Positions 8,453 through 64,000 of a stretch of 64,000 bases of DNA are shown one piece after another (the stretch's first letter is position 1; the number at the start of each line of letters is the position of its first letter). Made by a program: the position numbers and the translations under genes. The notes beneath the pieces were generated by a model that saw nothing but the letters and a program-made list of their open reading frames with translations, was not told the origin of the DNA and did not search any database. The DNA is from Patescibacteria group bacterium (lineage in GTDB: Bacteria; Patescibacteriota; JABMPQ01; JAQVVF01), in the NCBI GenBank assembly GCA_041662665.1, contig JBAZSC010000001.1, forward strand, positions 513,511 to 577,510, in the 5' to 3' direction.

Positions 8453-8512
8453 GCTTAGTCAAATTGAAAATGTCTTAAATAAGCCAAAAAAACAAAGATT
8501 TACAAAAAAGCC

Positions 8513-37181: not shown

Positions 37182-38156
37182 TTGAAATACACGTTTGTCA
37201 TTCCAGTCAAGGAAATTAATGATTATATAAGAGAAACCATTCCCAATATTTTAGAAATTAAGCGAGATGATTTTGAAATAATTATTTATCCAAACGAAAT
37301 TAATTCAGAACATTGGCCAAAAACAAAGCAAATTTCTACAGGTCCAGGCGGACCAGCAATGAAAAGAAATCTAGCAATCAGAGATGCAAAAGGTGAAATA
37401 TTGATTTTCGTTGACGATGATGCTTTTCCTAAAAATAATTTGTTGGAAATCCTTGATCAAGATTTTAACGATAAAAATATTATTGCTGTTGGCGGTCCAG
37501 CTTTAACACCTAAAGAAGACAATTTTTGGCAAAAGGTTTCGGGTGCAGTTTTTTTAAGTAATTTTTCTGGCGGTTTTCCAGAACGTTATGTTCAAGTTGG
37601 CCAAAAAAGATTTATCAATGATTGGCCAAGTGTCAATTTATCAATCAGAAAAAACAATTTTCAAAAAGTCAAAGGTTTCAATTCGGAATATTGGCCAGGT
37701 GAAGATACTAAGTTATGTATTGACCTATTAAAAGAAAATAAAGGCAAAATAATTTACGATCCAGAATTAATTGTTTATCATCATCGCCGTCAAGGTTTGT
37801 TAGAGCACTTAAAACAAGTTGGCAATTATGGAATTCATCGCGGTTTTTTCGCCAAGAAATATCCAGAGACTTCTTTAAAATTAAAGTACTTTGTTCCAAG
37901 CTTCTTTTTATTATTTATTATTTTGGGAGCTATATCTAGTATCTTTTCAAGCATAATCCTTCGTCTCTACATTTTAGGCTGGATAATTTATGCGCTTTCT
38001 TATATCAAGATTTTCTTCGACATTCACAAATACGAAAAGAATATCCTAATAATTTTTAATACTTTTTACTACATTTTTTTAACACACATCTGGTATGGAA
38101 CAAGATTTTTACAAGGATTTATTTTTACTAAAAATTTAAAAAGCAAATACCGATGA
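37182..38156 (+). CDS. Glycosyltransferase family 2 with C-terminal membrane segment
   Basis: FVIPVKE...; DDDAFP motif; C-terminal TM helices. Confidence 0.55.
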   Translation: MKYTFVIPVKEINDYIRETIPNILEIKRDDFEIIIYPNEINSEHWPKTKQISTGPGGPAMKRNLAIRDAKGEILIFVDDDAFPKNNLLEILDQDFNDKNIIAVGGPALTPKEDNFWQKVSGAVFLSNFSGGFPERYVQVGQKRFINDWPSVNLSIRKNNFQKVKGFNSEYWPGEDTKLCIDLLKENKGKIIYDPELIVYHHRRQGLLEHLKQVGNYGIHRGFFAKKYPETSLKLKYFVPSFFLLFIILGAISSIFSSIILRLYILGWIIYALSYIKIFFDIHKYEKNILIIFNTFYYIFLTHIWYGTRFLQGFIFTKNLKSKYR

Positions 38157-39607
38157 AAATATCAATTTCGTATCCGCCAATGCAATCAAAAAAAGGCACG
38201 CCTTTATTATCACAAAATCGTCAATTCCAATGGTTTAATTCGCCAACCTATATTTTTCCAGTTATTCCAGCTTATGCTGCAACTTTATTATCAAAAAATG
38301 GTTATCAAGTTTTTTGGCATGATGGCATTGCCAAAGAGCAGACCTATCAAGAATGGCTTGCCGATATTATTAACACAAAGCCAGATATTCTAGTTATTGA
38401 ATCAAAAACCCCAGTCATAAAAAAGCATTGGAAAATTATTGATGAATTAAAGGCAAAAAACAAAGAATTAAAAATTGTTCTAATGGGTGATCATGTGACA
38501 GCAATGCCAGAAGAATCATTGAAAAATTCAAAAGCTGATTATATTTTAACAGGCGGAGATTTTGATTTTCTTTTGCTCAATCTAGCAAATCATTTAAGCA
38601 AAGGCGAAAAACTTGAGGGTGGAATTTGGTTTAGAGAAAATGGAGCATTGAAAAATTCAGGTCCAATTGATTTATTAAAACATGATTTAAATTCCTTGCC
38701 AATGGTTGATAGAGAATTAGTTAATTGGCAATTATATGCCTACAAAAATGGCAATTTTAAACATACTCCAGGCACATACATGATGTCAGGACGTGATTGT
38801 TGGTGGGGAAGATGTTCATTTTGTTCTTGGACAACATTATTCCCAGGCCAGCATTTCCGTACTCGATCTGCAAAACAAGCTTTGGATGAAATAGGTCATT
38901 TGATCGATTTAGGTGTTAAAGAAATAATGGAAGATTCAGGTAGTTTACCAATAGGAGATTGGCTACTAGAATTTTGTAATGGCATGATTGAAAGAGGTTA
39001 CAACAAAAAAGTTACCATGAGTTGCAATATGAGGATTAGCGGCATCAAGGATCCAAAAATTTGGCAATTAATGAAGCAAGCTGGTTTTCGTTTTGTATTA
39101 TTTGGTCTAGAATCAGCAAACCAAAAAACACTAGATAAAATTAATAAAAATCTTAAAGTTGAAGAAATTGAATATGGTTTAAAAATTTGTAAAGAAGCAG
39201 GCTTAGAACCGCATATCACTGCAATGATTGGTTATCCTTGGGAAACAAAAGAAGATGCTCAAAGAACTGTTTGTCTTGCCAAAGATTTATTTAAAAAAGG
39301 TTATGTTGATACTTTGCAGGCAACTGTTTTAATTCCTTATCCAGGTACACCATTATATAAGTATTGCTTAGAAAATAATTTATTGAATTTTACAGATTAT
39401 GATCGTTTTGATCAACGAGAACAAGTAATGAAGAGTGTTTTAACTACAGAAGATGTTAAAGAGTTGACTTCAGGATTATATAAAGCTTTTATGACGCCAA
39501 AATTTATCTTGAAAAAAATCAGCCAGACTAGAAATATGAATGATCTTAAATTTTTGTGGAAAGCAGGAACAAAAGTTTTAGGACATCTAATGGATTTTAA
39601 AAGCTAA
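38153..39607 (+). CDS. B12-binding-domain radical SAM protein
   Basis: N-terminal cobalamin-binding-like Rossmann segment and a Cys cluster CWWGRCSFC (Cx4Cx2C). Confidence 0.55.
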   Translation: MKISISYPPMQSKKGTPLLSQNRQFQWFNSPTYIFPVIPAYAATLLSKNGYQVFWHDGIAKEQTYQEWLADIINTKPDILVIESKTPVIKKHWKIIDELKAKNKELKIVLMGDHVTAMPEESLKNSKADYILTGGDFDFLLLNLANHLSKGEKLEGGIWFRENGALKNSGPIDLLKHDLNSLPMVDRELVNWQLYAYKNGNFKHTPGTYMMSGRDCWWGRCSFCSWTTLFPGQHFRTRSAKQALDEIGHLIDLGVKEIMEDSGSLPIGDWLLEFCNGMIERGYNKKVTMSCNMRISGIKDPKIWQLMKQAGFRFVLFGLESANQKTLDKINKNLKVEEIEYGLKICKEAGLEPHITAMIGYPWETKEDAQRTVCLAKDLFKKGYVDTLQATVLIPYPGTPLYKYCLENNLLNFTDYDRFDQREQVMKSVLTTEDVKELTSGLYKAFMTPKFILKKISQTRNMNDLKFLWKAGTKVLGHLMDFKS

Positions 39608-39622
39608 TTTTACTGACTATCC

Positions 39623-40495
39623 ATGACAATCCCTTTAATATCAGTAATTATAACGACAAAAAATGAAGAAGATAATATTAGATATTGCCTAAAATCAATA
39701 AAACAGCAAACATATCCGAAAGAATTTATTGAAATGATTGTTATAGATAATAATTCTACGGATAAGACAAAAGAAATTGCCAAGCAATATACAAAGCTAG
39801 TTTTCAATTTTGGTCCAGAAAGATCGGCTCAAAGAAATTATGGAATTAATAAATGTCATGGAGAATATTTTTTACAACTCGATGCTGATCAATCACTAGA
39901 CAAAAACGTAATTGAAGAATGTGTAAAAAAAATTGTCAATTTCAAAGATAATGATAAGTCAAACAATTATTTCGCAGATATCGCTTTACAGGTACCAGAA
40001 AATATTGTCGGAAGTAAAAATTACTTTAATAGAATAAGAAATTATGAAAAAGTATTTTATACAAATTCAGTAATCGATTGTGTAAGATTTATTCCGACAA
40101 AAATAATAAAAGATATTGGAGGATATGATTGTTCTCTTAACGGACCAGAAGATTGGGATTTGGATCAGCGCATTAGGGAAAAATGTTACATTGATATTAT
40201 TGATAGCCATATGGATCATAATGAAGGGAATGTAACTTTTTTAAAATTCTTGGAAAAAAAATGGTACTATTCAAAATCCTTCGGAAAATATATAAGTAAA
40301 TGGGGAAAAAATAATAGATATGTTAAACTAAGGCTTGGTTTTTTTTACAGATACATAGGAGTTTTTGTAGAGAATAAAAAATACAAAAATGTCTTAATTC
40401 ACCCAATGTTATTCGCAAGCCTGATTGGCACTAAATTAATACTAGGCGGAGTATTTCTTGGCCGAACATTCGCTGATAAATTCAAAACAAGATGA
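39623..40495 (+). CDS. Glycosyltransferase family 2
   Basis: LISVIITTKNEEDNIRYCLKSI...; DADQ and EDWD motifs. Paralog of 43474..44337. Confidence 0.75.
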   Translation: MTIPLISVIITTKNEEDNIRYCLKSIKQQTYPKEFIEMIVIDNNSTDKTKEIAKQYTKLVFNFGPERSAQRNYGINKCHGEYFLQLDADQSLDKNVIEECVKKIVNFKDNDKSNNYFADIALQVPENIVGSKNYFNRIRNYEKVFYTNSVIDCVRFIPTKIIKDIGGYDCSLNGPEDWDLDQRIREKCYIDIIDSHMDHNEGNVTFLKFLEKKWYYSKSFGKYISKWGKNNRYVKLRLGFFYRYIGVFVENKKYKNVLIHPMLFASLIGTKLILGGVFLGRTFADKFKTR

Positions 40496-41355
40496 ACAAA
40501 ATTTTTTTGACAGGCTCAACAGGTTTTATAGGCAAAAAATTATTAGATAAAATTTCTAAAAACAAAGATAACTATATTATTTGTTTAATCAGAAATGAGA
40601 ATAAAGCAAAGAAAAAGCTATCAAATATCAAATATATAGAAGGCGATTTAAATCCTAGCAAATACTTCAGTCTTTTATCAAATTGTAATTATATAATTCA
40701 CTTAGCAGCTGAACTAGATTCCAAAAATGAAGACATTTTCAGAGTTAACGTTGATTTTACCGAAGCTTTAATAAGTGCTTGTAATAAAAATATTAAAAAG
40801 TTTATTTTTTTTAGTTCTATTACTGCGAAACGGAATGATACGGTTGCATACTCTGAATCAAAGAAAAGAGCCGAAGAAAAAATAAAAAAATATAATAAGC
40901 CTTATCTAATTATTCGTCCTGCCTGGGTCTTGGGAAAAGATTCGCGAAGTACAAAAAAATTTATCAGCTATCTCAAAAAATTTCCAATTCTACCAATAAT
41001 AGGAAACGGAAAAACTTTACTGCAACCTATATATATTGACGATTTAATAGAAATTACAAACACTCTCAGCTTCAATAATTTTGAAACCAACAAAAGTATA
41101 GAAATTGCTGGAAAATATCCAGTTGCTTATGAAGAATTTATTAATTATTTTCTTAAGAGAATGGCAATAAATAAAAGTAAAATTCATTTACCAATATCTA
41201 TTTGCAAACAAATCGCAAAACATTCGAATCTTCTTTCTCTGGATGCAGTCAGCGATTTTGCAAATAATACCATCGCTGATATCTCTTATCTTAAAAAAGC
41301 ATATAATTTTACTCCTTTAGACTATAAAGAAATTATCAATAAAATAGTAGAATAA
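40492..41355 (+). CDS. NAD-dependent epimerase/dehydratase family protein
   Basis: IFLTGSTGFIGKKLL; SxnYxxxK-like region. Confidence 0.55.
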   Translation: MNKIFLTGSTGFIGKKLLDKISKNKDNYIICLIRNENKAKKKLSNIKYIEGDLNPSKYFSLLSNCNYIIHLAAELDSKNEDIFRVNVDFTEALISACNKNIKKFIFFSSITAKRNDTVAYSESKKRAEEKIKKYNKPYLIIRPAWVLGKDSRSTKKFISYLKKFPILPIIGNGKTLLQPIYIDDLIEITNTLSFNNFETNKSIEIAGKYPVAYEEFINYFLKRMAINKSKIHLPISICKQIAKHSNLLSLDAVSDFANNTIADISYLKKAYNFTPLDYKEIINKIVE

Positions 41356-41360
41356 TCTTA

Positions 41361-42368
41361 ATGAAAAAATTAAATATTTCAATAATCGGAACAGGTGCAA
41401 TTGCAGAAAGTGCTCACTTGCCAAGTCTATTAAGTATTCCCCAAACGAATATCGTTAGTATTTGCGATTTAAAAAAAGATAAATTAGAAAAAATCGGACA
41501 TCAGTTTAATATTAGCAAAAAAGAAACTGATTACCACAGAGTACTCAACGATCCATCAGTTGAAGCTGTAATTGTTTCCACAAATGCACCAATGCATGAA
41601 AAAATCGTTTTAGATAGCCTAAAATCAGGAAAACATGTTTTTGTCGAGAAGCCGATTACAACTTCAATTGAAGCAGCAGAAAAAATTTTAAAACTACAGA
41701 ATGAGACAAATCTTTCCATTATGGTTGGCTATCAACTTCGTTTTATGCCGAACCATATTAAAGTGCGTGAATATCTAAAACAAGATATAGTGGGAAAAAT
41801 TTATCTTGGACACATTAGATCTGAAACATTAGTAATAAAACCAGAAGAAACATTATTAATAGATTATGGAACGCATTTTTTTGATTTAATAAGATGGTAT
41901 TTTGAAGGAAAGAAAATAGAATCAGTATCTGGCACAGTTATTTACGATAATGAAATTCAAGTAGGTGCAACTACCACTATTGTATTTGAAGATAATATAC
42001 AGACAATAGTTGAAATCTATTGGGTGCCAAAATGGAATTGGAGTAATGTTAATCGGACAGCTGAATTTATAGGTGAAAAGGGAAAAATATCTACACAAAT
42101 GAGCATACCTGCTATAAAACTGTGGAGATGTGATTCATTCAGAGATAAAATATTAGGTGAAAAAAACTTTACTCCTAAAGAGGTTTCTAATGTGTACATG
42201 TCAGCAGGAGATATCGCTTATAGAAAACAACTTGAAGTATTTGTTGATTGCATCTTGAATAATAAACCTGTACCGACGAATGCTTATGACGGTCTTATTG
42301 CTCTGAAAATTGCTCAGGCCTCTTTGCAATCACATCAAGAAAAAAAAGTAATAACAAATATTGAATGA
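41361..42368 (+). CDS. Gfo/Idh/MocA-family oxidoreductase
   Basis: ISIIGTGAIAESAHLPSL... N-terminal Rossmann fold; EKP motif. Confidence 0.7.
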   Translation: MKKLNISIIGTGAIAESAHLPSLLSIPQTNIVSICDLKKDKLEKIGHQFNISKKETDYHRVLNDPSVEAVIVSTNAPMHEKIVLDSLKSGKHVFVEKPITTSIEAAEKILKLQNETNLSIMVGYQLRFMPNHIKVREYLKQDIVGKIYLGHIRSETLVIKPEETLLIDYGTHFFDLIRWYFEGKKIESVSGTVIYDNEIQVGATTTIVFEDNIQTIVEIYWVPKWNWSNVNRTAEFIGEKGKISTQMSIPAIKLWRCDSFRDKILGEKNFTPKEVSNVYMSAGDIAYRKQLEVFVDCILNNKPVPTNAYDGLIALKIAQASLQSHQEKKVITNIE

Positions 42369-43447
42369 AAAATCAGGTTTCAATAATTGACGGTAAAATA
42401 GATTTTGGAAGAATTATTCCAAAATATTTTGATTCAACTAAAATCAAAGATTCAACAATATTAATCAAAATTGATACGTACTCTGGATTAAAATCACAAC
42501 AATCAGGAACTACAACAAATATCAAATTAGTTGAAAGTTTGATTCAATCACTTAATGTCTTTAGCCCCAAAAAAATATTAATTGCGGATTCCGAAAATAA
42601 AGATGATCTGAACTTAATTTTTGATACAATCGGTTATTCAGAATTAACTTTAAAATATCAAAATGTTGAATTGCTAAATCTAAGTCATGGCAGAACAGTT
42701 AGTTATATCGGAGAAAAAGATTATAAAATTCGTAATCAAGAATTTTCTGAAAAACTAAATTTTATTGATTTTTTCATAATTTTCTCAAATCTAAAAAGTC
42801 ATGTTGCAGAAAAAATTTCTGGATGTTGGCTTAGCCAATTAAATTATCTAGCAAATAATGAACAAAAAATTGTTTTACAGCCTTTCTCATTTTATATCGC
42901 TTATGATTTGTACAGATTTTTTAAGCCAAGTCTTTGTATTCTAGATGCTACGACTATTCTAGGTACTATGGGTCCTGTTGAAGGTCAGCCAAGAAAAATG
43001 AACAAGATCATAATTGGCAATAATCCTTGTCTTACTGACATTTGCGCTGCTAGATTATTAAAATTAGACTATAAAACTATTCCAACACTAAAATATGCAG
43101 TTAAAAAGCTAAAACTCAAGAAAATAGTTGAAAAGATCACTGGTCAAATTCAGCCAATAAATATTGATTTTCAGAAACTCTCAAGTTTACATTTTTTCAT
43201 TTTTAAATTTTCTTATTTTATTAATCGTTTATCAATTTATCTAAATAATTTCGCTTATCTAATTTTTTTAGGAGGAATGGCGCTAATTTCTATTGGTGGA
43301 AAAGATCTTGTCACGGGCAGATGGATGTCAATAAATAATTATTTTAAAATCGCAAAAGAAGTAATTACAAAAATTAATAAAGCTGATAACCTATTGAATT
43401 TAAAAATAACAATTAATAATCACGTTAAAGAACAAAGTATTTCATAG
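42365..43447 (+). CDS. Hypothetical protein (possibly DUF362-like)
   Basis: ORF with translational coupling to its neighbours. Family assignment is uncertain. Confidence 0.35.
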   Translation: MKNQVSIIDGKIDFGRIIPKYFDSTKIKDSTILIKIDTYSGLKSQQSGTTTNIKLVESLIQSLNVFSPKKILIADSENKDDLNLIFDTIGYSELTLKYQNVELLNLSHGRTVSYIGEKDYKIRNQEFSEKLNFIDFFIIFSNLKSHVAEKISGCWLSQLNYLANNEQKIVLQPFSFYIAYDLYRFFKPSLCILDATTILGTMGPVEGQPRKMNKIIIGNNPCLTDICAARLLKLDYKTIPTLKYAVKKLKLKKIVEKITGQIQPINIDFQKLSSLHFFIFKFSYFINRLSIYLNNFAYLIFLGGMALISIGGKDLVTGRWMSINNYFKIAKEVITKINKADNLLNLKITINNHVKEQSIS

Positions 43448-43473
43448 CTATTTTATTTACTGAAAAAGTTAAA

Positions 43474-44337
43474 ATGTCTGAATTAAATATTCCATTGGTT
43501 TCAATAATTATTGCAACCAAGAATGAGGAAAAAAATATTAAAAATTGCTTAAGATCTATCAAAAAACAAACTCTATCAAAAAATAAAATAGAGATTATTG
43601 TTGTTGACAATAATTCAATTGATAAAACGAAAAAAATAGCCAAACAATTTACCAATATTGTTCTAAATTATGGTCCTGAAAGATCAGCACAAAGAAATTT
43701 TGGCGTTTTACATGCTAAGGCAAACTGGATTCTATATCTCGATGCTGATATGATTTTATCAAATCACGTTTTAGACGAATGCTTAACAATGGTTCGAAGA
43801 AATAAAAAGCTCATTGGATTATATATTCCTGAAATTATTATAGGTAAAAGTTTTTTAAGTAAAATAAGGCAATTTGAAAGAAGTTTTTATAATGCAACTG
43901 CCATAGATGCTGTTCGTTTTATAAAAAAAGATATTTTTCTAAGCGTAAAAGGTTTTGACGAATCGTTAAATAGTGCTGAAGACTGGGATCTTGATAAGAG
44001 GTTGAAAGAACATGGAACTGTCGGAATAATTGACAATCCTCTTTTTCACAACGAAAAAGAGCTATCTTTAAGTAGATATTTATCAAAAAAGGTTTATTAC
44101 ACTAAAAGTTTTGAAAAATACATATCTAAATGGGGCTCTAGTGACAAAGATATCAGAAAACAACTCGGTTTTTATTATCGGTTTTTAGGCGTTCATTTTG
44201 AAAATAGTAAATGGAAAAAAGTTATTTCACATCCAATCCTTAGTTTAGGCGTATATTATTTACATTTTAGAAAAGGATTGATTTATCTATCTCAAAAAAA
44301 TCAATGGAAAAAGAATCCTTCAAAAATAAAGAATTAA
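43474..44337 (+). CDS. Glycosyltransferase family 2 (paralog of 39623..40495)
   Basis: LVSIIIATKNEEKNIKNCLRSI...DADM...EDWD. Confidence 0.75.
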   Translation: MSELNIPLVSIIIATKNEEKNIKNCLRSIKKQTLSKNKIEIIVVDNNSIDKTKKIAKQFTNIVLNYGPERSAQRNFGVLHAKANWILYLDADMILSNHVLDECLTMVRRNKKLIGLYIPEIIIGKSFLSKIRQFERSFYNATAIDAVRFIKKDIFLSVKGFDESLNSAEDWDLDKRLKEHGTVGIIDNPLFHNEKELSLSRYLSKKVYYTKSFEKYISKWGSSDKDIRKQLGFYYRFLGVHFENSKWKKVISHPILSLGVYYLHFRKGLIYLSQKNQWKKNPSKIKN

Positions 44338-46389: not shown

Positions 46390-46425
46390 ATTCCAAGTTC
46401 GTTTAATAATTTAAAAAGATATATT

Positions 46426-47226: not shown

Positions 47227-48067
47227 TTATTTATCTTTAACAAAAATTATGATTGAGCAAAAAACAAATAGTAAAAAAACATTATCACTTTTGCATAAAT
47301 ATTATATCTTAATTAGAAATATTAGATATAAAGAGTATATTGATGAAATTGAAAAAATTAAAAACGCCGAGTACGCTGATTTTTCCAGTTTTAGCGGTAT
47401 TAGGAAAGAAAATTTTGCCAAATGTATCGATCAATGGAATAATTATATTTCTAAAAATAAAATAGATTATAATAATTTAGATAAATATTATTCAAATTGT
47501 AACACAATAACAAATATTGAGGATCAATACAGTAGAGTGAATCTATATAAAGTATTAAAAGAATCAATTAAAAGTTTAAACAAAAAAATAAATTATCTTG
47601 ATTTTGGTTGTGGAAGCGGTTCTTTAAGCTTTAATTTCATTAAGTTTTTTCAGGAGGGCTATTTTTTAGACTTTCATAGCATGTCTCAAGAATTTTTAAA
47701 ATATAGAATAAACTTGAATAAAGATTGCAGAAATAATTTACATATTTTAGAACCACAAGAAATTGATAAAATAAAAAACAACTCACTAGATATTGTATTA
47801 ATATATGATGTTTTAGAACATTTACCAAATCCATCAGCAACCTTGAAAAAAATATCCTCTAAAATCAAAATCGGTGGTTTTATAGTATTTAGAGCGCCAT
47901 GGGGAGACACATTTTTTGGTAAGCATCCTGACCATAATATATTTTCTAGAAAAGAAATGATCAAAAACGGAGGCATGAAATTGCTTAAAGAAAAGTACGC
48001 TAAGATTAAATCAGTTTGTATTCTTGATTATTATTATAAACAAGGCGTTTTTCAAAAAATAATATAG
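47195..48067 (+). CDS. Class I SAM-dependent methyltransferase
   Basis: LDFGCGSGSLS motif I; start possibly at the internal Met at 47249. Confidence 0.6.
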   Translation: MAKYIAESRNNYLSLTKIMIEQKTNSKKTLSLLHKYYILIRNIRYKEYIDEIEKIKNAEYADFSSFSGIRKENFAKCIDQWNNYISKNKIDYNNLDKYYSNCNTITNIEDQYSRVNLYKVLKESIKSLNKKINYLDFGCGSGSLSFNFIKFFQEGYFLDFHSMSQEFLKYRINLNKDCRNNLHILEPQEIDKIKNNSLDIVLIYDVLEHLPNPSATLKKISSKIKIGGFIVFRAPWGDTFFGKHPDHNIFSRKEMIKNGGMKLLKEKYAKIKSVCILDYYYKQGVFQKII

Positions 48068-48079
48068 TTTTTAAAAAAA

Positions 48080-49489
48080 ATGTATAAGATTTTAGTTTTG
48101 AATTTACCAGGTAATGTAATGAAAGCTGGTTCAAGATGGTATAATGTTATTCAAAATTCAGCAACATCGCTAAGATACTCTCCATATCCTTGGTTTATGG
48201 GTTATTTAACATCATTATTAAAAAAAAATAATTTTGAAGCTAAACTTATTGACGCTATTGCGATGGAATGGAATTTTGAAAGAACGCTAGCTTTTATTAA
48301 AAAATTTAAACCAAAATACATAATTTGCGAACCTACATGGGTAAGTGAAGAAAGCGATAAAGATTTTTTAAGTAAAATTGACAAAAAAATAATCAAAATT
48401 GCGGTTGGAAACTATGCTACAAATTATCCATTTAATTGCTTAAAAAAAATACCAATAGATTATGTAGTTATCGGAGAATATGAATTTTCGATACTAGATT
48501 TTGTTAAGTCAGGTAACAAAATAATACCCAAAAATTTTGTAAGTAAAAATAAGAATAGTTTTGACAGATCAGAATTAGTAGATTTGAATCTCCTGCCTTT
48601 TCCAGAACGCAATGATACTCCGATTGAGTATTACAATGAACCATCTTGTTTTGGACGCAATATCGTAATGGTATCTTCACGCGGCTGTCGTTTAAAATGT
48701 AGTTTTTGTAATGTAGAATGCATATATGGCAAACATATCTACCGGACCAGAAATGTTAATAATGTAGTAGATGAAATGGAATATTTGAAAAAAAATTTTA
48801 AATTCGATGAAATATACTTTGATGATGACAATATGGTTGCCAAAAAAGAACATATAGATGGAATTTGTAAAGAAATTATTAGGAGAAGATTAAAAATAAA
48901 ATGGCTATGCATGGGTGATGGTTTAATCGATGATCAGACTCTGGAATTACTTGCGCTAGCTGGCTGTGTAACATATAAATATGGGCTTGAACATCTTGAC
49001 GAACAAGTTCTTAAAGCCATCCCGAAACCATTAAAAAGAGAACGTTTATTAGAAATAATTAAAAAATGCAAAGAGCTAAGAATGAGATCATACGTCAATC
49101 TGATTTTTGGACTTCCGCAATCAACTTTTAAAAAAGACTATAAAATGTTTCAGGATGTTCTTAAAGCTAATCCAGACTTATTACAAATTTCAATTGCTAC
49201 TCCATATCCAGGCACATTATTCTTTCAAAAAGCGAAAGCTAATGGTTGGCTTATCTCAGAAGATCCTAGTTATTTCGATGCTACTGGAAAAAGTGCTGTT
49301 TCATATCCAAATTATTCCGCAGAAGAGATTCAAAAAATGTTTAACTTAGGCTGGAAGATGTGGTATAAGCATGTTTTATTTAAGAAACCAAAAACACTTT
49401 TATTTTTCGTTAACAGTGAAATAAAAAGAAACGGATTATTAAGTACTCTTAATAAAATGACTTCTTATTCTAAAAAAATTATCAACTAA
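48080..49489 (+). CDS. B12-binding-domain radical SAM protein
   Basis: CRLKCSFC (CxxxCxxC) radical-SAM cluster after an N-terminal cobalamin-binding-like domain. Confidence 0.65.
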   Translation: MYKILVLNLPGNVMKAGSRWYNVIQNSATSLRYSPYPWFMGYLTSLLKKNNFEAKLIDAIAMEWNFERTLAFIKKFKPKYIICEPTWVSEESDKDFLSKIDKKIIKIAVGNYATNYPFNCLKKIPIDYVVIGEYEFSILDFVKSGNKIIPKNFVSKNKNSFDRSELVDLNLLPFPERNDTPIEYYNEPSCFGRNIVMVSSRGCRLKCSFCNVECIYGKHIYRTRNVNNVVDEMEYLKKNFKFDEIYFDDDNMVAKKEHIDGICKEIIRRRLKIKWLCMGDGLIDDQTLELLALAGCVTYKYGLEHLDEQVLKAIPKPLKRERLLEIIKKCKELRMRSYVNLIFGLPQSTFKKDYKMFQDVLKANPDLLQISIATPYPGTLFFQKAKANGWLISEDPSYFDATGKSAVSYPNYSAEEIQKMFNLGWKMWYKHVLFKKPKTLLFFVNSEIKRNGLLSTLNKMTSYSKKIIN

Positions 49490-49502
49490 ATTAATCAAAC
49501 AA

Positions 49503-50714
49503 TTGCAAAAAAATAAGATTCTTATTACTGGTGGAGCAGGCTATGTAGGCTCTAATCTTGAAAAATTTCTCAAAAAGAAAAATTTTATGATTTACTGTCT
49601 CGATATTCTCCCCAAAATAAAAAAAAATTATTTTCAAATTAATATTGTCAATAAAAAGCAAGTTTTAAATTTTCTTAAAAAAATTAAACCCGATATCATA
49701 ATTCATACTGCAGGTTTAAGCAATCTAAAAATTTGCGAAGAAAATAAAAAATTAGCATATCAAATCAATATTCAGGGAACAAAAAATCTAATTTCAGCAA
49801 TTAAGAATATTGACCAAAAAATTAAATTAGTATTTTTTTCTTCCGACTATGTATTTGATGGAATAAATGGAAATTATAAAGAGAATTCTATACAAAAACC
49901 AAGGACTGAATATGGAAAAAATAAACTTCAATCCGAAAAAGATATTAAAGATAACTTAAATAACTATATAATTTTGAGAACTGCCAACATATTCGGACAT
50001 AATGGCGGCAACTTTTTTAATTTCGTTGTAAAAAACTTGTTAGAAAATAAAAAGATCGAAGTTTTTAACGACGTATTTTACACTCCGACTTACATTGATT
50101 ATTTATTAGACTCAATCTATTATTTATTACAAAATGATTTTAACGGAACTATTCACATCGCAGGTGCTGAAACTATATCTCGTTATCAATTTGCTAAAAA
50201 AATAGCTTGTTCACTAAAAATAAATCCAAGGCTTATTAAACCTATTAAACAAGGAAACGGACTTATTTCAAAAAATGTTTCGCTTAATTCAAGCTATTCA
50301 AGAAAAATAATTAAAAATTATTATCCCAGTATAGATAAATCTCTTCATCATAATTTTTTGAATTTGCAGTATCCGTATTTTTATTTTGAAGATCAACGAG
50401 GTAAAATATTAGGATTGCTCCAGACAGGAAATTGGAAAGAAATTAACTACATAGAATCACAAAAAAAATGCATACGAGGTAATCATTATCATAAAAGAAC
50501 AAAAGAAGCCTTTTTCATTATTGATGGTAAAATCAAAGTCATTCTTAAAGATTTAAAAAACAACAAAACTAAAATATTTTATGTCCAAAAGGGTGACATT
50601 TTTATCGTAAACAAGTATGTTCTTCATACTTTTGAAATTATTAAAAATGCATCTTGGATTAATATGCTTTCAAAGCCAATGAACGAAAATGATAAGGACA
50701 TTCATCGAATATAA
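49503..50714 (+). CDS. Fusion protein: NAD(P)-dependent sugar-nucleotide reductase/epimerase (RmlD-like) plus C-terminal cupin (WxcM/FdtA-like sugar ketoisomerase)
   Basis: N-terminal ILITGGAGYVGSNL; C-terminal IRGNHYHKRTKEAFFIIDGKIKV cupin motif. Confidence 0.5.
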   Translation: MQKNKILITGGAGYVGSNLEKFLKKKNFMIYCLDILPKIKKNYFQINIVNKKQVLNFLKKIKPDIIIHTAGLSNLKICEENKKLAYQINIQGTKNLISAIKNIDQKIKLVFFSSDYVFDGINGNYKENSIQKPRTEYGKNKLQSEKDIKDNLNNYIILRTANIFGHNGGNFFNFVVKNLLENKKIEVFNDVFYTPTYIDYLLDSIYYLLQNDFNGTIHIAGAETISRYQFAKKIACSLKINPRLIKPIKQGNGLISKNVSLNSSYSRKIIKNYYPSIDKSLHHNFLNLQYPYFYFEDQRGKILGLLQTGNWKEINYIESQKKCIRGNHYHKRTKEAFFIIDGKIKVILKDLKNNKTKIFYVQKGDIFIVNKYVLHTFEIIKNASWINMLSKPMNENDKDIHRI

Positions 50715-50786
50715 TTTTTTCTGGTAATAATATTTATAAAAATATATACTACTAGATAGACACAAATAATTTTAAATAATATTTTT

Positions 50787-51722
50787 ATGAGCACTCATTC
50801 AGTAAGGAGAGAAAAAGTCTTAATAACAGGGGGGACAGGTTTGTTGGGATTATCACTAATACAAAATGCACCTAGAAATTATGATATTTTTGCCACTTAT
50901 CATAGATTTCCTACAAAGATTCTTCCAGATTTCAGTAATTGTAAATATATTTCATTAGATGTTACTGACAAAAAGAATGTAATGAAACTGTTCAAAAAAA
51001 ATAAACCTAAATATTTAATTCACACTGCATCAATAGGAAGTGTTGATTTTTGCGAACAACATAAAAAAGAAGCTTTCAAGATTAACGTTTTGGGTGGAAG
51101 AAACATGATTGAGGCGTGTAAAAAGTACGATACTAAAATTATTTACACATCATCAAATGCTGTGTTCGATGGAAAAAATCCTCCATACAAAGAAAGCGAC
51201 CAAACAAAACCTCTGGATTATTATGGCAAAACAAAACTGCAGACCGAAAAAGATATTTTGAAAAATAATATTAAATATTGTATTGTGCGTCTTATGACTA
51301 TGTACGGATGGAATCATTGTAACGAAAGGCCAAATCCAGTCACTTGGCTTCTGGATGAATTAAAAAACAATCGTCAAGTCAAAGTGGTAGATGATATATA
51401 CAATAATCATTTATACGTTAAAGATGCTGCTAAAGCTATATGGCAAATAATCAAAAAAAATAAATCAAAAATCTATCATCTAGCCGGACCAAAAACAATT
51501 TCTCGTTTTGATCTTTCATTAAATGTAGCCAAAACCTTTAAACTTAACCAAAATTTGATTCAACCCGTTGATTCTTCATTTTTTCCGTCATTAGCACCTC
51601 GACCAAAAGATACAACCTACCAGATCAATAAAATGATCAAAGAATTAGGCGTTAAACCAATGAGTCCTCTAAAAGGTTTACTTGATATGAAAAAAAATCA
51701 GCCTTCCTGGAAAAAAAGTTAA
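50787..51722 (+). CDS. dTDP-4-dehydrorhamnose reductase-like (RmlD family)
   Basis: VLITGGTGLLG; SSNAVFDG motif. Confidence 0.6.
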   Translation: MSTHSVRREKVLITGGTGLLGLSLIQNAPRNYDIFATYHRFPTKILPDFSNCKYISLDVTDKKNVMKLFKKNKPKYLIHTASIGSVDFCEQHKKEAFKINVLGGRNMIEACKKYDTKIIYTSSNAVFDGKNPPYKESDQTKPLDYYGKTKLQTEKDILKNNIKYCIVRLMTMYGWNHCNERPNPVTWLLDELKNNRQVKVVDDIYNNHLYVKDAAKAIWQIIKKNKSKIYHLAGPKTISRFDLSLNVAKTFKLNQNLIQPVDSSFFPSLAPRPKDTTYQINKMIKELGVKPMSPLKGLLDMKKNQPSWKKS

Positions 51723-51724
51723 AT

Positions 51725-52858
51725 ATGAACAAACCTAAAAAAATATTATTAATTTCACATATTGCTAATTCGATCGGACCAGTCCAAAAAATGGAAGAAT
51801 TTTTAATTCAAAAAAAATCATGCTTTGCTGTTATTGGACATCCTTACGAGTTTACGTCAAACGAAAGTTTTTTAAAAATATATAGTAATGGTAAAATTAT
51901 AAGCGAAAAGAAGATTATCCGTAAAAAAAAGTTAAGTGCAATTGCCTATATCGAAGATATTTTTTTATCAATTAGGATCTATAAAAAATATCTAGATAGC
52001 AATTTTGAATTATGCTTTGGATTTGATCCACTTAACGCCATTTCAGCCATTATCATCAAAAAAATATATAGGATAAATAAAGTGATCTATTATTCTGTAG
52101 ACTATGCTGAAAAAAGATTTGAAAACTTTTTTCTTAATTATATCTATCATCTTTTAGATAAATTTGCTAGTAGGCACGCTGATTATTGCTGGTCAGTTTC
52201 AAATTCTATTCGTAATATTAGAAAGCATTTAAGAATACCAGATAAAAAAAACATTTTAGCGCCGAATGGGCTAAATATTAATGAAATTTGCACAACTCCA
52301 GAATTTCCTAAAAACAATATTTTTTATATCGGGGTGCTTTCAAAAACGAAAGGCGTGCATAGTCTAATCGACATAATGCCACAAATTCTTAAACAAAATC
52401 CGCTAGTTAAATTACACATAATTGGCGGAGGTCCAGATGAAGAATTTCTTCAAACTCTTGCGCAGAAGAAAGGAATAAGCGATAGAATTAATTTTTATGG
52501 ATATACGAAGCAAGAGCGAACAAACAAAATTCTTTCTCTTGGTGGAATCGGTGTTGCCCCTTATGAAGATACCGAGGATTATGTAAGATTCTGCGATCCT
52601 CTCAAAGTAAAAAATTATTTAGCAATGGGAATTCCTGTCGTTATGACAAAGATTCCAGCACTTGCAGAGGAGATTGAAGAAAATAGTTTAGGTTTTGCAG
52701 TCGAAAACAAAAAAGAAATGGCTGATAGAATCAATGAAATTCTGTCAGATTCAAACAAATATATGTTATTTAGAAATAATGCATTAAAAGCAAAAAAGAT
52801 GTATGATATTAATATGATTTATGACCAAGCTTTTCAAAAAATATCTTACAATATTTAA
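51725..52858 (+). CDS. Glycosyltransferase family 4-like
   Basis: C-terminal Glycos_transf_1-like region; paralog of 44304..45512. Confidence 0.6.
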   Translation: MNKPKKILLISHIANSIGPVQKMEEFLIQKKSCFAVIGHPYEFTSNESFLKIYSNGKIISEKKIIRKKKLSAIAYIEDIFLSIRIYKKYLDSNFELCFGFDPLNAISAIIIKKIYRINKVIYYSVDYAEKRFENFFLNYIYHLLDKFASRHADYCWSVSNSIRNIRKHLRIPDKKNILAPNGLNINEICTTPEFPKNNIFYIGVLSKTKGVHSLIDIMPQILKQNPLVKLHIIGGGPDEEFLQTLAQKKGISDRINFYGYTKQERTNKILSLGGIGVAPYEDTEDYVRFCDPLKVKNYLAMGIPVVMTKIPALAEEIEENSLGFAVENKKEMADRINEILSDSNKYMLFRNNALKAKKMYDINMIYDQAFQKISYNI

Positions 52859-52870
52859 ATCATTTGAAAT

Positions 52871-53698
52871 ATGCAAAATACGAATGTGATTCAAGATCAA
52901 AAATATTTTTTCGATTTAAATGCCCAAAAAGAAGAAAAAAAAGTAAACAAAAACAACTTTTTCTATATTTATAATACAGAAATCATCTATTCTGGTTTTA
53001 ATTGGTTATCTGATAGAAAGAAGATAATTGATTATGGATGCGGGACTGGTAAAAACATTGAAATGTTTTTGGACAATACGAACGACAAAAGCAAGAGTTT
53101 TATTGGTGTTGATATTTCTGATGAAGCAATTAAAAAGGCAAAAGAAAAATTTACAGAAAAACAATATAATTTCATCAAAATTTCAAACAATAAAATACCG
53201 CAAATTGCTGATATGGGAACCGATGGAGCTTATATGATTTGTGTTTTACATCATAGTCATGAACATCAGGCAATTTTTAACGAAATTTATAAAAAATTGA
53301 AGAAAAATGGGAAATTTTACATTGTAGATTTAACAGCAGATAACATAATTGTGAATTTTGCAAGAAATGCTTTTACAATATTGCCAAAAAAATTTAGGAA
53401 TAGCTTTAGCGATGACCTAGTTGTTGATGGAAAAATTCCAGAAAAATATGTAGTTAATATCAATAGTGTTGTCCAACAACTTAAACAAACTGGCTTTGAA
53501 ATTCAGGGGATAGATAAAAGTGAACTTTTTTTATTTATTGCAAGCTGGGTAGAAAAATTTGTCCCTATAAGTTGCAATGATTCTAACCTTTACTGTAAAT
53601 TACTAAGAAAATGCCATCAACTTGAAAAGAAAATGCTTAAAATTAATTATTTTAATAAAAGGGCTCATGTTTTTTCAATAAAATGCATCAAAAAATAG
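52871..53698 (+). CDS. Class I SAM-dependent methyltransferase
   Basis: IDYGCGTGKN motif I. Confidence 0.6.
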   Translation: MQNTNVIQDQKYFFDLNAQKEEKKVNKNNFFYIYNTEIIYSGFNWLSDRKKIIDYGCGTGKNIEMFLDNTNDKSKSFIGVDISDEAIKKAKEKFTEKQYNFIKISNNKIPQIADMGTDGAYMICVLHHSHEHQAIFNEIYKKLKKNGKFYIVDLTADNIIVNFARNAFTILPKKFRNSFSDDLVVDGKIPEKYVVNINSVVQQLKQTGFEIQGIDKSELFLFIASWVEKFVPISCNDSNLYCKLLRKCHQLEKKMLKINYFNKRAHVFSIKCIKK

Positions 53699-54429
53699 AC
53701 AATTCAAACAATTGTATGCCGTCACAGCATGGAGGCTATTCACCAGGAAAAGAAAAGCCAATGCTGAATATAATAAATGACATATTGAAAGAGAATAAAC
53801 GTGGTTTTAAATTAATTGACATAGGATGTGGCGACGGATTTTTTTTAAACATGTTTTATCAAATTTTAGAAGAAAAAAAAATTGATTTAGATAATGTTAA
53901 ACTGGTTGGAATTGATAAGCATGAATACCATAATTCTTCAAGAAATAATAAAATTTTTTTTCTCAAAGAAGATATTTTTGAAATTGAAAAGCATTTCCCA
54001 CATAATTATTTTGATTTTGTAGTTTGTTCAGAGGTCATTGAACATGTTGTCGAAACAGATAAATTGATTAAGAAAATTAAAAAGATATTAAAACCAAATG
54101 GTTTTTTATTTTTGACTACACCAAATTTAGCTTCATATCACGGCAGATTTTCGTTATTAATGGGTCTTTTACCACTCGCGAGTGAAATAAGCAATGAAAA
54201 TGCAAAATTTGGAAAAGGCTTTTTATCGAAATATTATTTTACTTCGTCAAAACCGATTTTTCATGTTCGCGTCTTCACATTAAAAGCCCTAAAAGAATTT
54301 ATTATTTTTCACAAATTAGAAATAAAGAACATTTCTGGTTTTGATTACAAGATGCCTTGGTTTTGGAAAAAAATTCCTTCATTTGCACCTGGAATTTATA
54401 TGATTTGCCAAAATACAAAAGATTTTTAA
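53683..54429 (+). CDS. Class I SAM-dependent methyltransferase
   Basis: IDIGCGDGFF motif I; CSEVIEHV motif. Confidence 0.6.
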   Translation: MHQKIDNSNNCMPSQHGGYSPGKEKPMLNIINDILKENKRGFKLIDIGCGDGFFLNMFYQILEEKKIDLDNVKLVGIDKHEYHNSSRNNKIFFLKEDIFEIEKHFPHNYFDFVVCSEVIEHVVETDKLIKKIKKILKPNGFLFLTTPNLASYHGRFSLLMGLLPLASEISNENAKFGKGFLSKYYFTSSKPIFHVRVFTLKALKEFIIFHKLEIKNISGFDYKMPWFWKKIPSFAPGIYMICQNTKDF

Positions 54430-63785: not shown

Positions 63786-64000
63786 AAATAGTTTTTGTTT
63801 CAGATTCAATCTATCCATATTTTAAAGGTGGCAAGGAAAAAAGAATTTACGAAGTGACAACAAGATTAGTGACGCTTGGACACGAAGTCCATATTTTTAC
63901 GATGAAATGGTGGCAAGGGGATAGTGTAATAAAAAAAGATAACATTACCTTACATGGGATTTCAAAGCTTTATCAGCTGTATAATAAAAAGAATAAAAGA
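63782..64000 (+). CDS. Glycosyltransferase family 4, N-terminal part (partial, runs off the window end)
   Basis: MKIVFVSDSIYPYFKGGKEKRIYEV... GT4 N-domain motif. Confidence 0.55.
   Translation, partial: MKIVFVSDSIYPYFKGGKEKRIYEVTTRLVTLGHEVHIFTMKWWQGDSVIKKDNITLHGISKLYQLYNKKNKR

Follow-up and report, generated by a model that had tools for sequence, protein, structure and literature searches.

A window of 64 kb from the genome of a member of the Patescibacteria (assembly GCA_041662665.1, contig JBAZSC010000001.1) was analysed, and all gene coordinates given below are positions within it. The window carries a long probable glycan operon that encodes glycosyltransferases (GTs), a putative flippase, methyltransferases, and two radical S-adenosylmethionine (SAM) proteins of class-B architecture, referred to here as RS1 and RS2. 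A preliminary description, made from the letters of the stretch and a list of its open reading frames (ORFs), had delimited a glycan-tailoring block at 38153-54429 and had proposed that its product is a heavily C- and O-methylated deoxy-sugar glycan. The 17 ORFs of this block lie where they had been placed, all on the + strand. Their tight packing is likewise borne out by seven overlaps (4, 4, 4, 34, 20, 32, and 16 nt) and remaining gaps of 2-72 nt. The 4-nt overlaps, at 38153, 40492, and 42365, are of the ATGA start/stop type, and one overlap is shorter if the methyltransferase MT1 begins at 45505, where gene calling done independently on a Logan contig puts its start.

The unit extends beyond the limits given for the block, which forms the middle of a co-directional operon at 34914-63785 (~29 kb). 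This comprises 24 same-strand genes whose spacing ranges from -68 to +72 nt, with ATGA overlaps at five junctions. The block is thus the tailoring core of one long operon, most likely a glycan operon, of Patescibacteria. A terminator-like hairpin (63877-63891) is located 3′ of the last operon gene, and no terminator-like site is prominent in the intergenic regions. Scans for promoters and terminators in this AT-rich DNA gave counts no different from those in shuffled sequence, and no operon-internal signals are drawn. Rfam and ARAGORN found just two tRNAs in the window, none of them in the cluster. The G+C content of the window is ~29% overall, two GC-rich islands excepted. The RS1 protein is also present, in identical form, on Logan, ENA, and JGI metagenome contigs. 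The features considered are collected in Table 1.

Table 1. Genes of the two radical SAM modules, other genes of the operon with its divergent neighbour, and upstream genes for donor and SAM supply (window positions).
Feature	Position	Strand	Basis
GT2b, near-invariant upstream partner of RS1	37182..38156	+	Pfam Glycos_transf_2; ATGA overlap with RS1
RS1, class-B-architecture radical SAM protein	38153..39607	+	Pfam Radical_SAM and B12-binding
GT4a (GT-B, Glycos_transf_1)	44304..45512	+	Pfam
RS2, class-B-architecture radical SAM protein	48080..49489	+	Pfam Radical_SAM 54.6 bits (cutoff 29.5)
Fusion of RmlD-type NDP-sugar 4-reductase (residues 1-280) and cupin (~295-400)	49503..50714	+	Pfam
Extended short-chain dehydrogenase/reductase (SDR; 4,6-dehydratase / ArnA-dehydrogenase / UXS-like), divergent from operon start	33914..34855	-	Pfam GDP_Man_Dehyd 174 bits, Epimerase 171 bits
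Wzx-like (MOP) flippase, first operon gene	34914..36230	+	Pfam Polysacc_synt 76 bits (cutoff 28.2), Polysacc_synt_3
GT2a, polyprenyl-phosphate sugar synthase-like GT2 (PgfS/ArnC-like)	36163..37125	+	NCBIfam
GT2c glycosyltransferase	39623..40495	+	Pfam Glycos_transf_2 88 bits
Extended SDR oxidoreductase, generic	40492..41355	+	Pfam 3Beta_HSD, Epimerase, NAD_binding_4; RmlD_sub_bind 35 bits
GFO/IDH/MocA sugar dehydrogenase	41361..42368	+	Pfam GFO_IDH_MocA 87 bits
DUF362 protein	42365..43447	+	Pfam DUF362 72 bits
GT2d glycosyltransferase	43474..44337	+	Pfam Glycos_transf_2 85 bits
MT1, class-I SAM methyltransferase with C-terminal zinc ribbon	45493..46389	+	Pfam Methyltransf_11
FkbM-family methyltransferase	46426..47226	+	Pfam Methyltransf_21 68 bits
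Class-I SAM methyltransferase	47195..48067	+	Pfam Methyltransf_12/23/31/11
Stand-alone RmlD-like reductase	50787..51722	+	Pfam RmlD_sub_bind 202 bits
GT4b glycosyltransferase	51725..52858	+	Pfam Glycos_transf_1 89 bits
Class-I SAM methyltransferase	52871..53698	+	Pfam Methyltransf_31/11/25
MT5, class-I SAM methyltransferase	53683..54429	+	Pfam Methyltransf_23/31/11
848-aa polytopic membrane protein, probable GT-C (AftD-related)	54447..56993	+	Hydropathy, homologs
576-aa polytopic membrane protein, ~10 transmembrane segments	56974..58704	+	Hydropathy
202-aa membrane protein, 6-7 transmembrane segments	58742..59350	+	Hydropathy; no Pfam match
1169-aa membrane protein, ~12 N-terminal transmembrane segments and ~770-aa outside domain	59347..62856	+	Hydropathy; locus tag WC663_02950
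GT2e, polyprenyl-phosphate hexose synthase-like GT2 (AglJ-like), last operon gene	62853..63785	+	NCBIfam
RmlC-like cupin	10114-10593	+	NCBIfam 43.7 bits (cutoff 155.75)
RmlB	11720-12736	+	NCBIfam 475.6 bits, over cutoff
RmlD	13274-14104	+	NCBIfam 292.5 bits, over cutoff
RmlA	14227-15105	+	NCBIfam 499.1 bits, over cutoff
GalE-like epimerase	17856-18785	+	NCBIfam galE 232 bits, cutoff 262 not reached
SAM synthetase MetK	18956-20104	+	NCBIfam metK 602.9 bits, over cutoff
UDP-glucose 6-dehydrogenase-like (Ugd-like)	20202-21518	+	NCBIfam NDP-sugar dehydrogenase 469.8 bits, over cutoff

RS1 and the GT2b-RS1 module

Overall, the locus is most likely an envelope-glycan operon of ordinary type with two uncharacterised class-B radical SAM modules. 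In the first of them, RS1 matches the Pfam families Radical_SAM (56.1 bits, cutoff 29.5) and B12-binding (33.1 bits, barely exceeding the cutoff of 32.1). Its cysteines form the Cx4Cx2C motif that had been noticed before (C216-x4-C221-x2-C224), and this motif is invariant in 15 homologs. An AF2 model built from an alignment of homologs (pLDDT 81.5) is matched by Foldseek to AprD4, TsrM, QCMT, OxsB, CysS, and TokK. The family also bears an invariant N-terminal motif, LLxQNRQFQWFN, at residues 18-29, where the model has low confidence (pLDDT <50 at residues 20-31). Of this motif, Arg alone is common to RS1, RS2, HpnJ, and a related enzyme of Lawsonia (see below). The motif may serve as a cofactor or substrate loop.

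Among the matches listed in a homolog search, all 120 clusters show 68-79% identity to RS1, and those with names belong to Parcubacteria, Moranbacteria, and Falkowbacteria. A scan of one genome per species with two RS1-specific peptide patterns gave at least 560 confirmed loci. The counts of neighbouring genes given here rest on the best 80 of these at least 560 loci (54-79% identity), among which are Patescibacteria and, by their record labels, Elusimicrobia, Nitrospinota, Desulfobacterota, Dehalococcoidia, Spirochaetota, Bathyarchaeia, and ANME-2. One carrier of RS1, Fundidesulfovibrio agrisoli SG106 (Desulfobacterota; locus L045, 57% identity), is in culture. No RS1 ortholog was found on annotated plasmids, where the nearest protein is 28% identical. 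RS1 is a highly conserved and widely distributed family, found from the candidate phyla radiation (CPR) to Bathyarchaeia and tied to one glycosyltransferase.

This glycosyltransferase, GT2b, has weak NCBIfam matches to MftF and AglG and is encoded upstream of RS1 on the same strand, at a distance of no more than 2.5 kb, in 64 of the 71 loci with enough sequence. When all neighbouring ORFs were clustered independently, the GT2 family was recovered in 71 loci, Wzx-like proteins in 51 (median position -3.1 kb from RS1), extended SDRs in 41, and GT4s in 31. A GT2c/d-like gene follows RS1 in 28 of 53 loci, and the genes recur in the order Wzx - GT2a - [SDR/Ugd] - GT2b - RS1 - GT2c/d. Of 40 related loci, 23 have a relative of the divergent SDR gene (33914) no more than 6 kb away from RS1, and its place is often between GT2a and GT2b. 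In 21 related loci (L004, 11537-12052; L005, 7361-7870; and 19 others), RS1 is directly followed by a gene for a ~165-aa YdjM-like membrane protein with DxDHxxDY and HGWE motifs, which is absent from the window. All these genes are already present in public databases under generic names. No paper on B12-type radical SAM enzymes in glycan loci of CPR bacteria or on the GT2b-RS1 pair was found, within incomplete literature coverage.

RS2, the RmlD/cupin fusion, and GT4a

The cysteine motif of RS2 is the canonical Cx3Cx2C (C203-x3-C207-x2-C210), as had been described, and the protein has no match to Pfam B12-binding. The NCBIfam models for radical SAM enzymes of the B12 type nevertheless align to it from residue 28-35 onwards, with the HpnJ model covered over positions 32-444 of 472 (181.9 bits). 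A comparison of the RS1 and RS2 profiles in hhalign gave a probability of 100 over residues 32-440, the N-terminal domain included, and several more distant relatives of RS2 have precomputed PF02310 matches. The AF2 model of RS2, also made from a homolog alignment (pLDDT 84.4), is matched to the same enzymes as that of RS1; for both models, the first 16-17 PDB matches in Foldseek are AprD4, TsrM, QCMT/MgmA, OxsB, CysS, and TokK (TM-scores of 0.58-0.72), all of them two-domain enzymes. The matches to TsrM, QCMT, OxsB, CysS, and TokK extend over both domains of each model, a B12-binding-like Rossmann domain and a radical SAM barrel. The preliminary description had made its methylated-glycan hypothesis depend on support from hidden Markov models (HMMs) for the assignment of two B12-binding-type radical SAM proteins. 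This support was obtained from Pfam (for RS1) and NCBIfam and is joined by that from hhalign and AF2/Foldseek, RS2 being the one without a Pfam B12 match.

The RS2 family is the smaller of the two, with ~100 clusters above 50% identity among the matches listed and a sharp drop of identity beyond them. Its constant partner is a fusion protein composed of an RmlD-type reductase (Pfam RmlD_sub_bind, 184 bits over residues 5-250) and a cupin, whose residues 296-397 match Polysacc_synt_C/PF14667 (47.6 bits), FdtA (27.4 bits), and Cupin_1 (24.9 bits). The SDR half scores 172.4 bits on TIGR01214, under the cutoff of 224. The fusion had been called unusual. Its two domains are as proposed, and it is indeed rare, with ~15 full-length (~400 aa) clusters in an exhaustive search of 1.84 billion representatives, beyond which only plain RmlD proteins follow; its domain order, on the other hand, is the same as in the solved CapF/Cap5F. 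Orthologs of GT4a lie directly upstream, and those of the fusion directly downstream, of RS2 orthologs in loci L004, L054 (labelled Desulfofervidaceae), L087, and L088. GT4a - RS2 - RmlD/cupin fusion is thus a conserved triad, rarer than the RS1 module.

What the radical step may be

Class-B architecture does not equal C-methylation, and the earlier conclusion from B12-type radical SAM proteins to a C-methylated sugar is not established: the top HMM, HpnJ, describes a non-methylase, and the top fold match, AprD4, is cobalamin-free. The best NCBIfam models are those of HpnJ, BchE, and the ladderane enzyme (170, 111, and 77 bits for RS1; 181.9, 87, and 100 bits for RS2), with the methylase models scoring lower. 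The HpnJ cutoff (TIGR03471, 577.6 bits) is reached by neither protein. Since all NCBIfam scores are far under the equivalog cutoffs, RS1 and RS2 belong to no named family. The best PDB sequence matches are QCMT and AprD4 for RS1 and AprD4 (38 bits) and TsrM for RS2, and AprD4 is also the best Foldseek match of both models (TM-score 0.68-0.72, ~15% identity).

For pairwise comparisons, HpnJ was taken from a genuine hpnI-hpnJ-hpnK locus on a Mycetohabitans megaplasmid, and a B12-type radical SAM gene of S. clavuligerus pSCL4 served as the MoeK5-like reference. The latter is preceded by genes for an epimerase, an Asn-synthase-like protein, a 411-aa ORF without Pfam match, and a second Asn-synthase-like protein, which we take to be the order moeE5-F5-GT1-H5-K5 of the moenomycin literature; the MoeK5 assignment presumes this order and does not come from annotation. 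The scores were 126 bits for RS1-HpnJ, 96 for RS1-MoeK5-like, 126 for RS2-HpnJ, 114 for RS2-MoeK5-like, and 110 for HpnJ-MoeK5-like. The identities of HpnJ to RS1 and RS2 are 24.6-28.5%, those of the MoeK5-like protein are 26% to each, and the overall range is 24-29%. These scores agree with a similarity network from the literature that places Fom3, MoeK5, and HpnJ together (PMC9204698). According to the same review, no sequence signature sets methylases apart from enzymes of the HpnJ, BchE, and OxsB types. OxsB, HpnJ, and BchE are listed as non-methylases, and the ladderane enzyme as a non-methylase or as one whose reaction is not known (PMC9204698, PMC12931638). AprD4 is a sugar 1,2-diol dehydratase that does not bind cobalamin (PMC12931638); in it, as in ArsL-like enzymes, the Rossmann domain is related but free of cobalamin (PMC9204698, PMC12931638).

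The specific claim of C-methylation is unproven, and nothing in the system is categorically new. Among the conceivable reactions, C-methylation of an unactivated sugar carbon in the manner of MoeK5 is ranked first, since no other class-B chemistry is as common and MoeK5 offers a precedent on a lipid-linked sugar; we put it at somewhat less than even odds. The fuller proposal, in which RS1 and RS2 are both cobalamin-dependent C-methyltransferases and, together with the five SAM methyltransferases, would make a deoxy-sugar glycan heavily methylated at both C and O, is more tentative still. In its favour, most characterised class-B enzymes C-methylate, including the sugar methylases GenK and MoeK5 (PMC9204698, PMC12931638), and a related CPR locus encodes a transcobalamin-like DUF4430 lipoprotein beside radical SAM genes (PMC4350170). 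Within the window, the Pfam B12-binding match of RS1, the solved methylases QCMT, TsrM, CysS, and TokK among the top fold matches, the MoeK5-like protein with its equal identity to RS1 and RS2, and the nearby MetK all point the same way. What speaks against it is that the best HMMs, which score about twice as high as any methylase model, are those of non-methylases, that the best fold match is an enzyme without cobalamin, that RS2 has no Pfam B12-binding match, and that no B12 uptake gene is found within the window. Nor do we know of cobalamin synthesis as a general property of Patescibacteria, which counts against the proposal as well.

A non-methylating ring contraction or rearrangement of the HpnJ/Cds type is a doubtful candidate for the radical step. 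Stated more specifically, that RS1 and possibly RS2, like HpnJ or calditol synthase, would turn a lipid-linked hexose into a unit that is carbocyclic (cyclitol-like) or rearranged in some other way, the idea seems unlikely. It draws on HpnJ being the top NCBIfam model for both proteins, aligned over nearly the full length, on genuine HpnJ being nearer than any other protein of the plasmid collection that has a functional annotation (28.5% identity), and on the GT2-then-radical SAM gene order that is also seen in hpnI-hpnJ. For HpnJ and Cds alike, contraction of a lipid-bound hexose is the proposed reaction (PMC13459092, PMC9204698). However, the scores are far under the HpnJ cutoff, HpnJ is not meaningfully closer to RS2 than the MoeK5-like methylase is, the window has no hpnK-like deacetylase, squalene-hopene cyclase, or hopanoid genes, and the HpnJ reaction has never been reconstituted (PMC13459092). 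GT2b was also considered as an HpnI-like protein and rejected (BLASTP E = 0.033), which is a further point against rearrangement.

Less likely again is a cobalamin-independent diol dehydration followed by SDR reduction, as in the AprD4/AprD3 pair. Here, RS2 and/or RS1 would be a diol dehydratase, and the adjacent SDR, the RmlD/cupin fusion, would reduce the keto-deoxy product, with the result of an extra deoxygenation. AprD4 and AprD3 are a dehydratase-reductase pair, which is mirrored by the RS2-fusion pairing, as the fusion always follows RS2. AprD4 is, besides, of equal size and the same two-domain layout as both models that it matches best, and it is the best PDB sequence match of RS2, the protein without a Pfam B12 match. 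Its NCBIfam model, by contrast, gives just 44-54 bits against 170-182 for HpnJ, the identity is as low as ~15%, the TM-scores to cobalamin-binding enzymes are nearly equal, and the fusion is adequately explained as an ordinary epimerase/4-reductase for a dTDP-4-keto-6-deoxyhexose. That the radical step is of some other kind is unlikely too, if a little less so than diol dehydration. HMM scores, PDB sequence matches, pairwise BLAST, and fold search all fail to separate methylases from non-methylases here.

Putative lipid-carrier, flippase, and membrane-protein genes

The operon starts with a Wzx-like protein that has about 12-15 hydrophobic segments and combines a Pfam match over the cutoff with the ~12 transmembrane segments of Wzx/MOP proteins. 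GT2a and GT2e, each with 2-3 C-terminal hydrophobic segments (transmembrane helices), frame most of the remaining genes. GT2a, whose likely true start is 36217 (as in the gene call on locus L001), aligns over its full length with PgfS (225.6 bits, cutoff 500) and with the ArnC-type model PRK10714 (134.9 bits, cutoff 529). GT2e is aligned in the same way with AglJ (251.6 bits, cutoff 325) and scores 88 bits on the dolichyl-phosphate hexose transferase model. For the SDR divergent from the operon, no NCBIfam model was found over its cutoff.

The second part of the operon is dominated by membrane proteins. The 848-aa protein, with ~12-13 N-terminal transmembrane segments and a large C-terminal outer domain, a topology compatible with GT-C enzymes, has no Pfam match itself, and two of ten aligned homologs match GT-C_AftD (PF11847) at 3e-15; homologs are encoded at the same position, after the methyltransferases, in L005, L017, L024, L088, and others. 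Judged from these relatives, it is a probable GT-C (AftD-related) glycosyltransferase. The 576-aa protein gave no Pfam or NCBIfam match and has weak relatives in L065 and L075; it is possibly GT-C-like or polymerase-like. The 1169-aa protein, likewise without a Pfam or NCBIfam match, has just two homologs (36-37% identity) among 5.8 billion proteins. Phosphoglycosyl-transferase families had no match in the window ORFs scanned. The sole hint of an oligosaccharyltransferase is a marginal match (0.0048) to the AglB C-terminal domain, with no signature confirmed.

Other tailoring enzymes and glycosyltransferases

The enzyme inventory given in the preliminary description holds for the most part. 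GT2c and GT2d are paralogous GT2s (49% identical), GT4a and GT4b are two GT4-like enzymes (32% identical), and Pfam agrees with both assignments, as it does with the Gfo/Idh/MocA oxidoreductase and the DUF-like protein, which belongs to DUF362. The FkbM protein (NCBIfam fkbM_fam, 100.7 bits, cutoff 37.7) and the four class-I methyltransferases are also supported by Pfam, and the zinc ribbon of one of them, MT1, by its CxxC...CxxC motif (C259/C262/C275/C278). MT5-like genes are recurrent in related loci. Of the two reductases described as RmlD-like, the stand-alone protein at 50787 is one (NCBIfam rmlD 191.9 bits, under the cutoff of 224), and that at 40492 turned out to be a generic extended SDR.

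This generic SDR forms, with the sugar dehydrogenase and the DUF362 protein, a trio that lies between the duplicated GT2c and GT2d and is part of neither conserved module. The best NCBIfam models of the dehydrogenase, inositol 2-dehydrogenase (150 bits) and UDP-GlcNAc 3-dehydrogenase (123 bits), are both under cutoff. DUF362 has a Pfam clan in common with LarA/DUF2088 (PMC11770544). The DUF362 protein of the window has no sequence relative in the PDB, no paper relevant to its function was found, and among 82 related loci examined a single weak counterpart was seen, which places it outside the conserved core.

Sugar-donor and SAM supply upstream

The sugar donors had been expected from genes in the same neighbourhood, which proved right for RmlA, RmlB, RmlD, and the Ugd-like dehydrogenase. 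The RmlC-like cupin is weak by its score, and the gene at 17856 that had been called UXS is best described as GalE-like. A Wzy_C protein and two GT4s are also encoded upstream of the operon. The metK gene stands in the midst of the sugar-nucleotide genes, and the operon 15 kb downstream of it encodes seven enzymes that use SAM.

The rest of the upstream region has several peculiarities. A GC-rich island at 470-2340 (53% G+C over 1-2000) carries ORFs at 531-1598 (355 aa) and 1693-2331 (212 aa), the latter of which starts like a signal peptide and is marked by (Glu-Gly)n repeats and numerous cysteines. Pfam matched neither ORF, and the island contains no rRNA. In the second island (41-48% G+C over 24001-28000), a 985-aa ORF (25243-28200) combines a hydrophobic segment at the N-terminus with five Cys-rich 'Cu-binding' repeats of MopE type and a Laminin_G_3 domain. 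Its gene context is the same on a Logan assembly of run SRR18595301. This speaks against a mis-join specific to this metagenome-assembled genome, though the genome may stem from the same reads. Finally, a 165-nt inverted repeat (2495-2659 / 3069-3233, 86% complementary) flanks tRNA-Lys(UUU) and tRNA-Leu(UAA) at 2826-3007, and both of its arms carry GAAACTCGGTTTT...AAAACCGAGTTTC palindromes.

Proposed pathway and cobalamin supply

That the locus is a glycan-assembly and tailoring cluster is supported, and with a probability of about 0.6 we propose that the operon assembles a methylated, deoxyhexose-containing oligosaccharide on polyprenyl phosphate, flips it across the membrane, and passes it to an acceptor in the envelope. 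The operon reading follows from the domain content and the conserved gene order observed, from which we infer all substrates, the carrier and the acceptor, and the sequence in which the steps take place. The donors would be dTDP-6-deoxyhexoses (RmlA/B/D, RmlC-like), sugars derived from UDP-glucuronate (Ugd-like protein and the SDR at 33914), and SAM (MetK), for all of which HMMs reveal nearby genes. GT2a and GT2e are predicted to charge polyprenyl phosphate with sugar, and GT2b, GT2c, GT2d, GT4a, and GT4b would lengthen the chain. RS1 may modify the sugar installed by GT2b while it is still lipid-linked; this placement draws on the nearly constant adjacency of the two genes and on the HpnI-HpnJ and moenomycin precedents. 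RS2, the RmlD/cupin fusion, and GT4a would constitute a second module that acts on a 6-deoxyhexose branch, to which RS2 is assigned owing to its fixed partnership with the other two.

The five ordinary methyltransferases would O- or N-methylate the glycan on the cytoplasmic face, which is plausible independently of the question of the radical step. An O-methylated, deoxyhexose-containing glycan, as had been proposed, is thus plausible in view of these five enzymes, MetK, and the nearby rml genes; the C-methylated part of that proposal is not established. The Wzx-like protein would then flip the product, and the GT-C-type proteins (848 aa, perhaps also 576 and 1169 aa) are expected to act in transfer outside.

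Several points weigh against this pathway. We know of no glycan product, acceptor, or carrier lipid in any member of the Patescibacteria. All the specific enzyme names stem from scores under the NCBIfam cutoffs (GT2a 226/500, GT2e 252/325, RS1/RS2 170-182/578), the GT-C assignment of the 848-aa protein is transitive, and the 576-, 202-, and 1169-aa membrane proteins have no Pfam family match. For RS1, the action on the GT2b product is deduced from adjacency, and its Cx4Cx2C motif is non-canonical. The failure of the comparisons to tell methylases from non-methylases and the inability of the best fold match, AprD4, to bind cobalamin belong here too, as does the lack of a recognisable gene for cobalamin uptake or salvage in the 64-kb window.

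With respect to cobalamin, a related CPR locus, L087 (GCA_004196315.1, SDBT01001699.1), has four class-B radical SAM genes, and just upstream of its GT4 - RS2 - fusion triad it encodes, at 7502-8585, a DUF4430 lipoprotein and a DUF6580 membrane protein. DUF4430 is the C-terminal domain of transcobalamins (PMC4350170). By their domains, the two proteins of L087 may be a dedicated B12 capture pair, which is a lead and not evidence for the genome of the window. No DUF4430 homolog was found in the window or in the other related loci, and the DUF6580 protein is likewise without a counterpart there. The 202-aa membrane protein of the operon was considered as a counterpart of the DUF6580 protein and rejected as unrelated.

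A bolder reading of the first module is speculative and, on present evidence, unlikely: GT2b-RS1 would be a widespread unrecognised pathway (at least 560 species, from Patescibacteria to Bathyarchaeia/ANME) in which a sugar linked to polyprenyl phosphate is remodelled, ahead of its export, by a radical SAM enzyme of class-B type, through ring contraction to a carbocycle or by formation of a C-branch, possibly without cobalamin in lineages unable to make it.

It is improbable that the cluster makes instead a secreted or membrane glycolipid natural product (moenomycin- or aminoglycoside-like) and not a structural envelope glycan, for although the nearest characterised sugar-modifying relatives, MoeK5, AprD4, and GenK, come from antibiotic pathways (PMC9204698) and some related CPR loci have AsnB-like amidotransferases, as does the moenomycin cluster, the Wzx-like and Wzy_C proteins, the polyprenyl-phosphate sugar synthase-like GT2s, and the GT-C-related proteins are hallmarks of envelope glycoconjugates, the RS1 core is 54-79% identical across hundreds of species, unlike typical specialised-metabolite clusters, and the window contains no prenyltransferase, nonribosomal peptide or polyketide synthase, or aminocyclitol genes.

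Comparison with known systems

The HpnI-HpnJ-HpnK pathway converts bacteriohopanetetrol glucosamine to the cyclitol ether, and Cds is the archaeal calditol synthase. The GT2b-RS1 module resembles these systems in having a GT2 gene directly upstream of a class-B radical SAM gene and, in the proposed pathway, a lipid-attached sugar as substrate; HpnJ and Cds are both held to act on a lipid-bound sugar (PMC13459092). The differences are the motif (Cx4Cx2C in RS1 vs. Cx3Cx2C), the lack in the window of HpnK and of hopanoid or glycerol dialkyl glycerol tetraether genes, and the setting, which is a lipid head-group pathway there and a Wzx/GT-C glycan operon here. The MoeK5 module for moenomycin unit F likewise places a class-B radical SAM gene beside those for a sugar epimerase and a GT and involves a lipid-phosphate-linked sugar, and its AsnB-like genes have counterparts in related CPR loci. 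The window, however, lacks an AsnB-like gene, prenyl-phosphoglycerate genes, and an antibiotic context, and the similarity to MoeK5 is no higher than that to HpnJ. AprD4/AprD3 is alike in acting on a sugar and in having a reductase partner, as RS2 has the SDR fusion; it differs in that AprD4 binds no cobalamin (PMC12931638), whereas RS1 retains a Pfam B12-binding match.

The fusion has a known analogue in the bifunctional enzyme CapF/Cap5F (WbjC) of UDP-L-FucNAc synthesis, where an SDR is also followed by a cupin and whose PDB entry is matched over residues 128-379 of the fusion. Its SDR half, on the contrary, is of RmlD type (122 bits to an RmlD chain vs. 29 to Cap5F), and the fusion scores 39.8 bits on the WbcJ/CapF-type model NF047837 (cutoff 500). 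CapE and CapG partners are missing here, and the constant neighbour of the fusion is a radical SAM gene.

We read the whole operon as a glycoconjugate pathway based on polyprenyl monophosphate, and its nearest parallels are the archaeal Agl system of N-glycosylation (AglJ/G/M/P/R/B) and the bacterial ArnC-ArnT, PgfS-PgfM, and CsbB-YfhO systems. In common with these, it has AglJ/PgfS/ArnC-like GT2s with C-terminal transmembrane helices, a Wzx-like flippase, SAM methyltransferases, and large membrane proteins related to GT-C enzymes, and a Ugd-like dehydrogenase is encoded nearby. All matches of the operon to these systems are under the equivalog cutoffs, and to our knowledge none of them contains radical SAM enzymes.

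The preliminary description had called this chemistry one not described for small AT-rich genomes. It is not special to such genomes, since the RS1 module is present also in Desulfobacterota, Elusimicrobia, Dehalococcoidia, and Bathyarchaeia, and a similar cluster on plasmid 1 of Lawsonia intracellularis (locus L090, NC_008012.1, 7151-26437) indicates that such clusters are not confined to genomes of this kind. The Lawsonia cluster combines GT2s, GalE, two radical SAM proteins, five class-I methyltransferases, and a DUF2142 membrane protein; its B12-type radical SAM protein is 28% identical to RS1 and is not an RS1 ortholog. It differs from the operon in its heptose-type genes (SIS, HAD, GHMP) and in being plasmid-borne, where it takes up most of the 27-kb plasmid of a cultured pathogen. 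No published function for this glycan cluster was found.

Significance

Patescibacteria live in attachment to other cells, and their genomes are minimal. Against this background, a 29-kb operon, which amounts to ~4% of the ~650-kb contig, is a large investment in one surface glycoconjugate, and the operon is a likely determinant of host contact. Neither the RS1 nor the RS2 family has a characterised member. By its conservation, its spread, and its tie to one glycosyltransferase, RS1 is a well-defined target in the search for a new sugar modification, and the cultured carrier F. agrisoli SG106 brings the question within experimental reach. Should the radical SAM enzymes depend on cobalamin, the locus would also imply that organisms unable to make B12 scavenge it. 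If, in turn, the GT2b-RS1 pair does constitute a pathway of the kind outlined above, many uncultured anaerobes would have in their cell envelopes a monosaccharide of a new kind.

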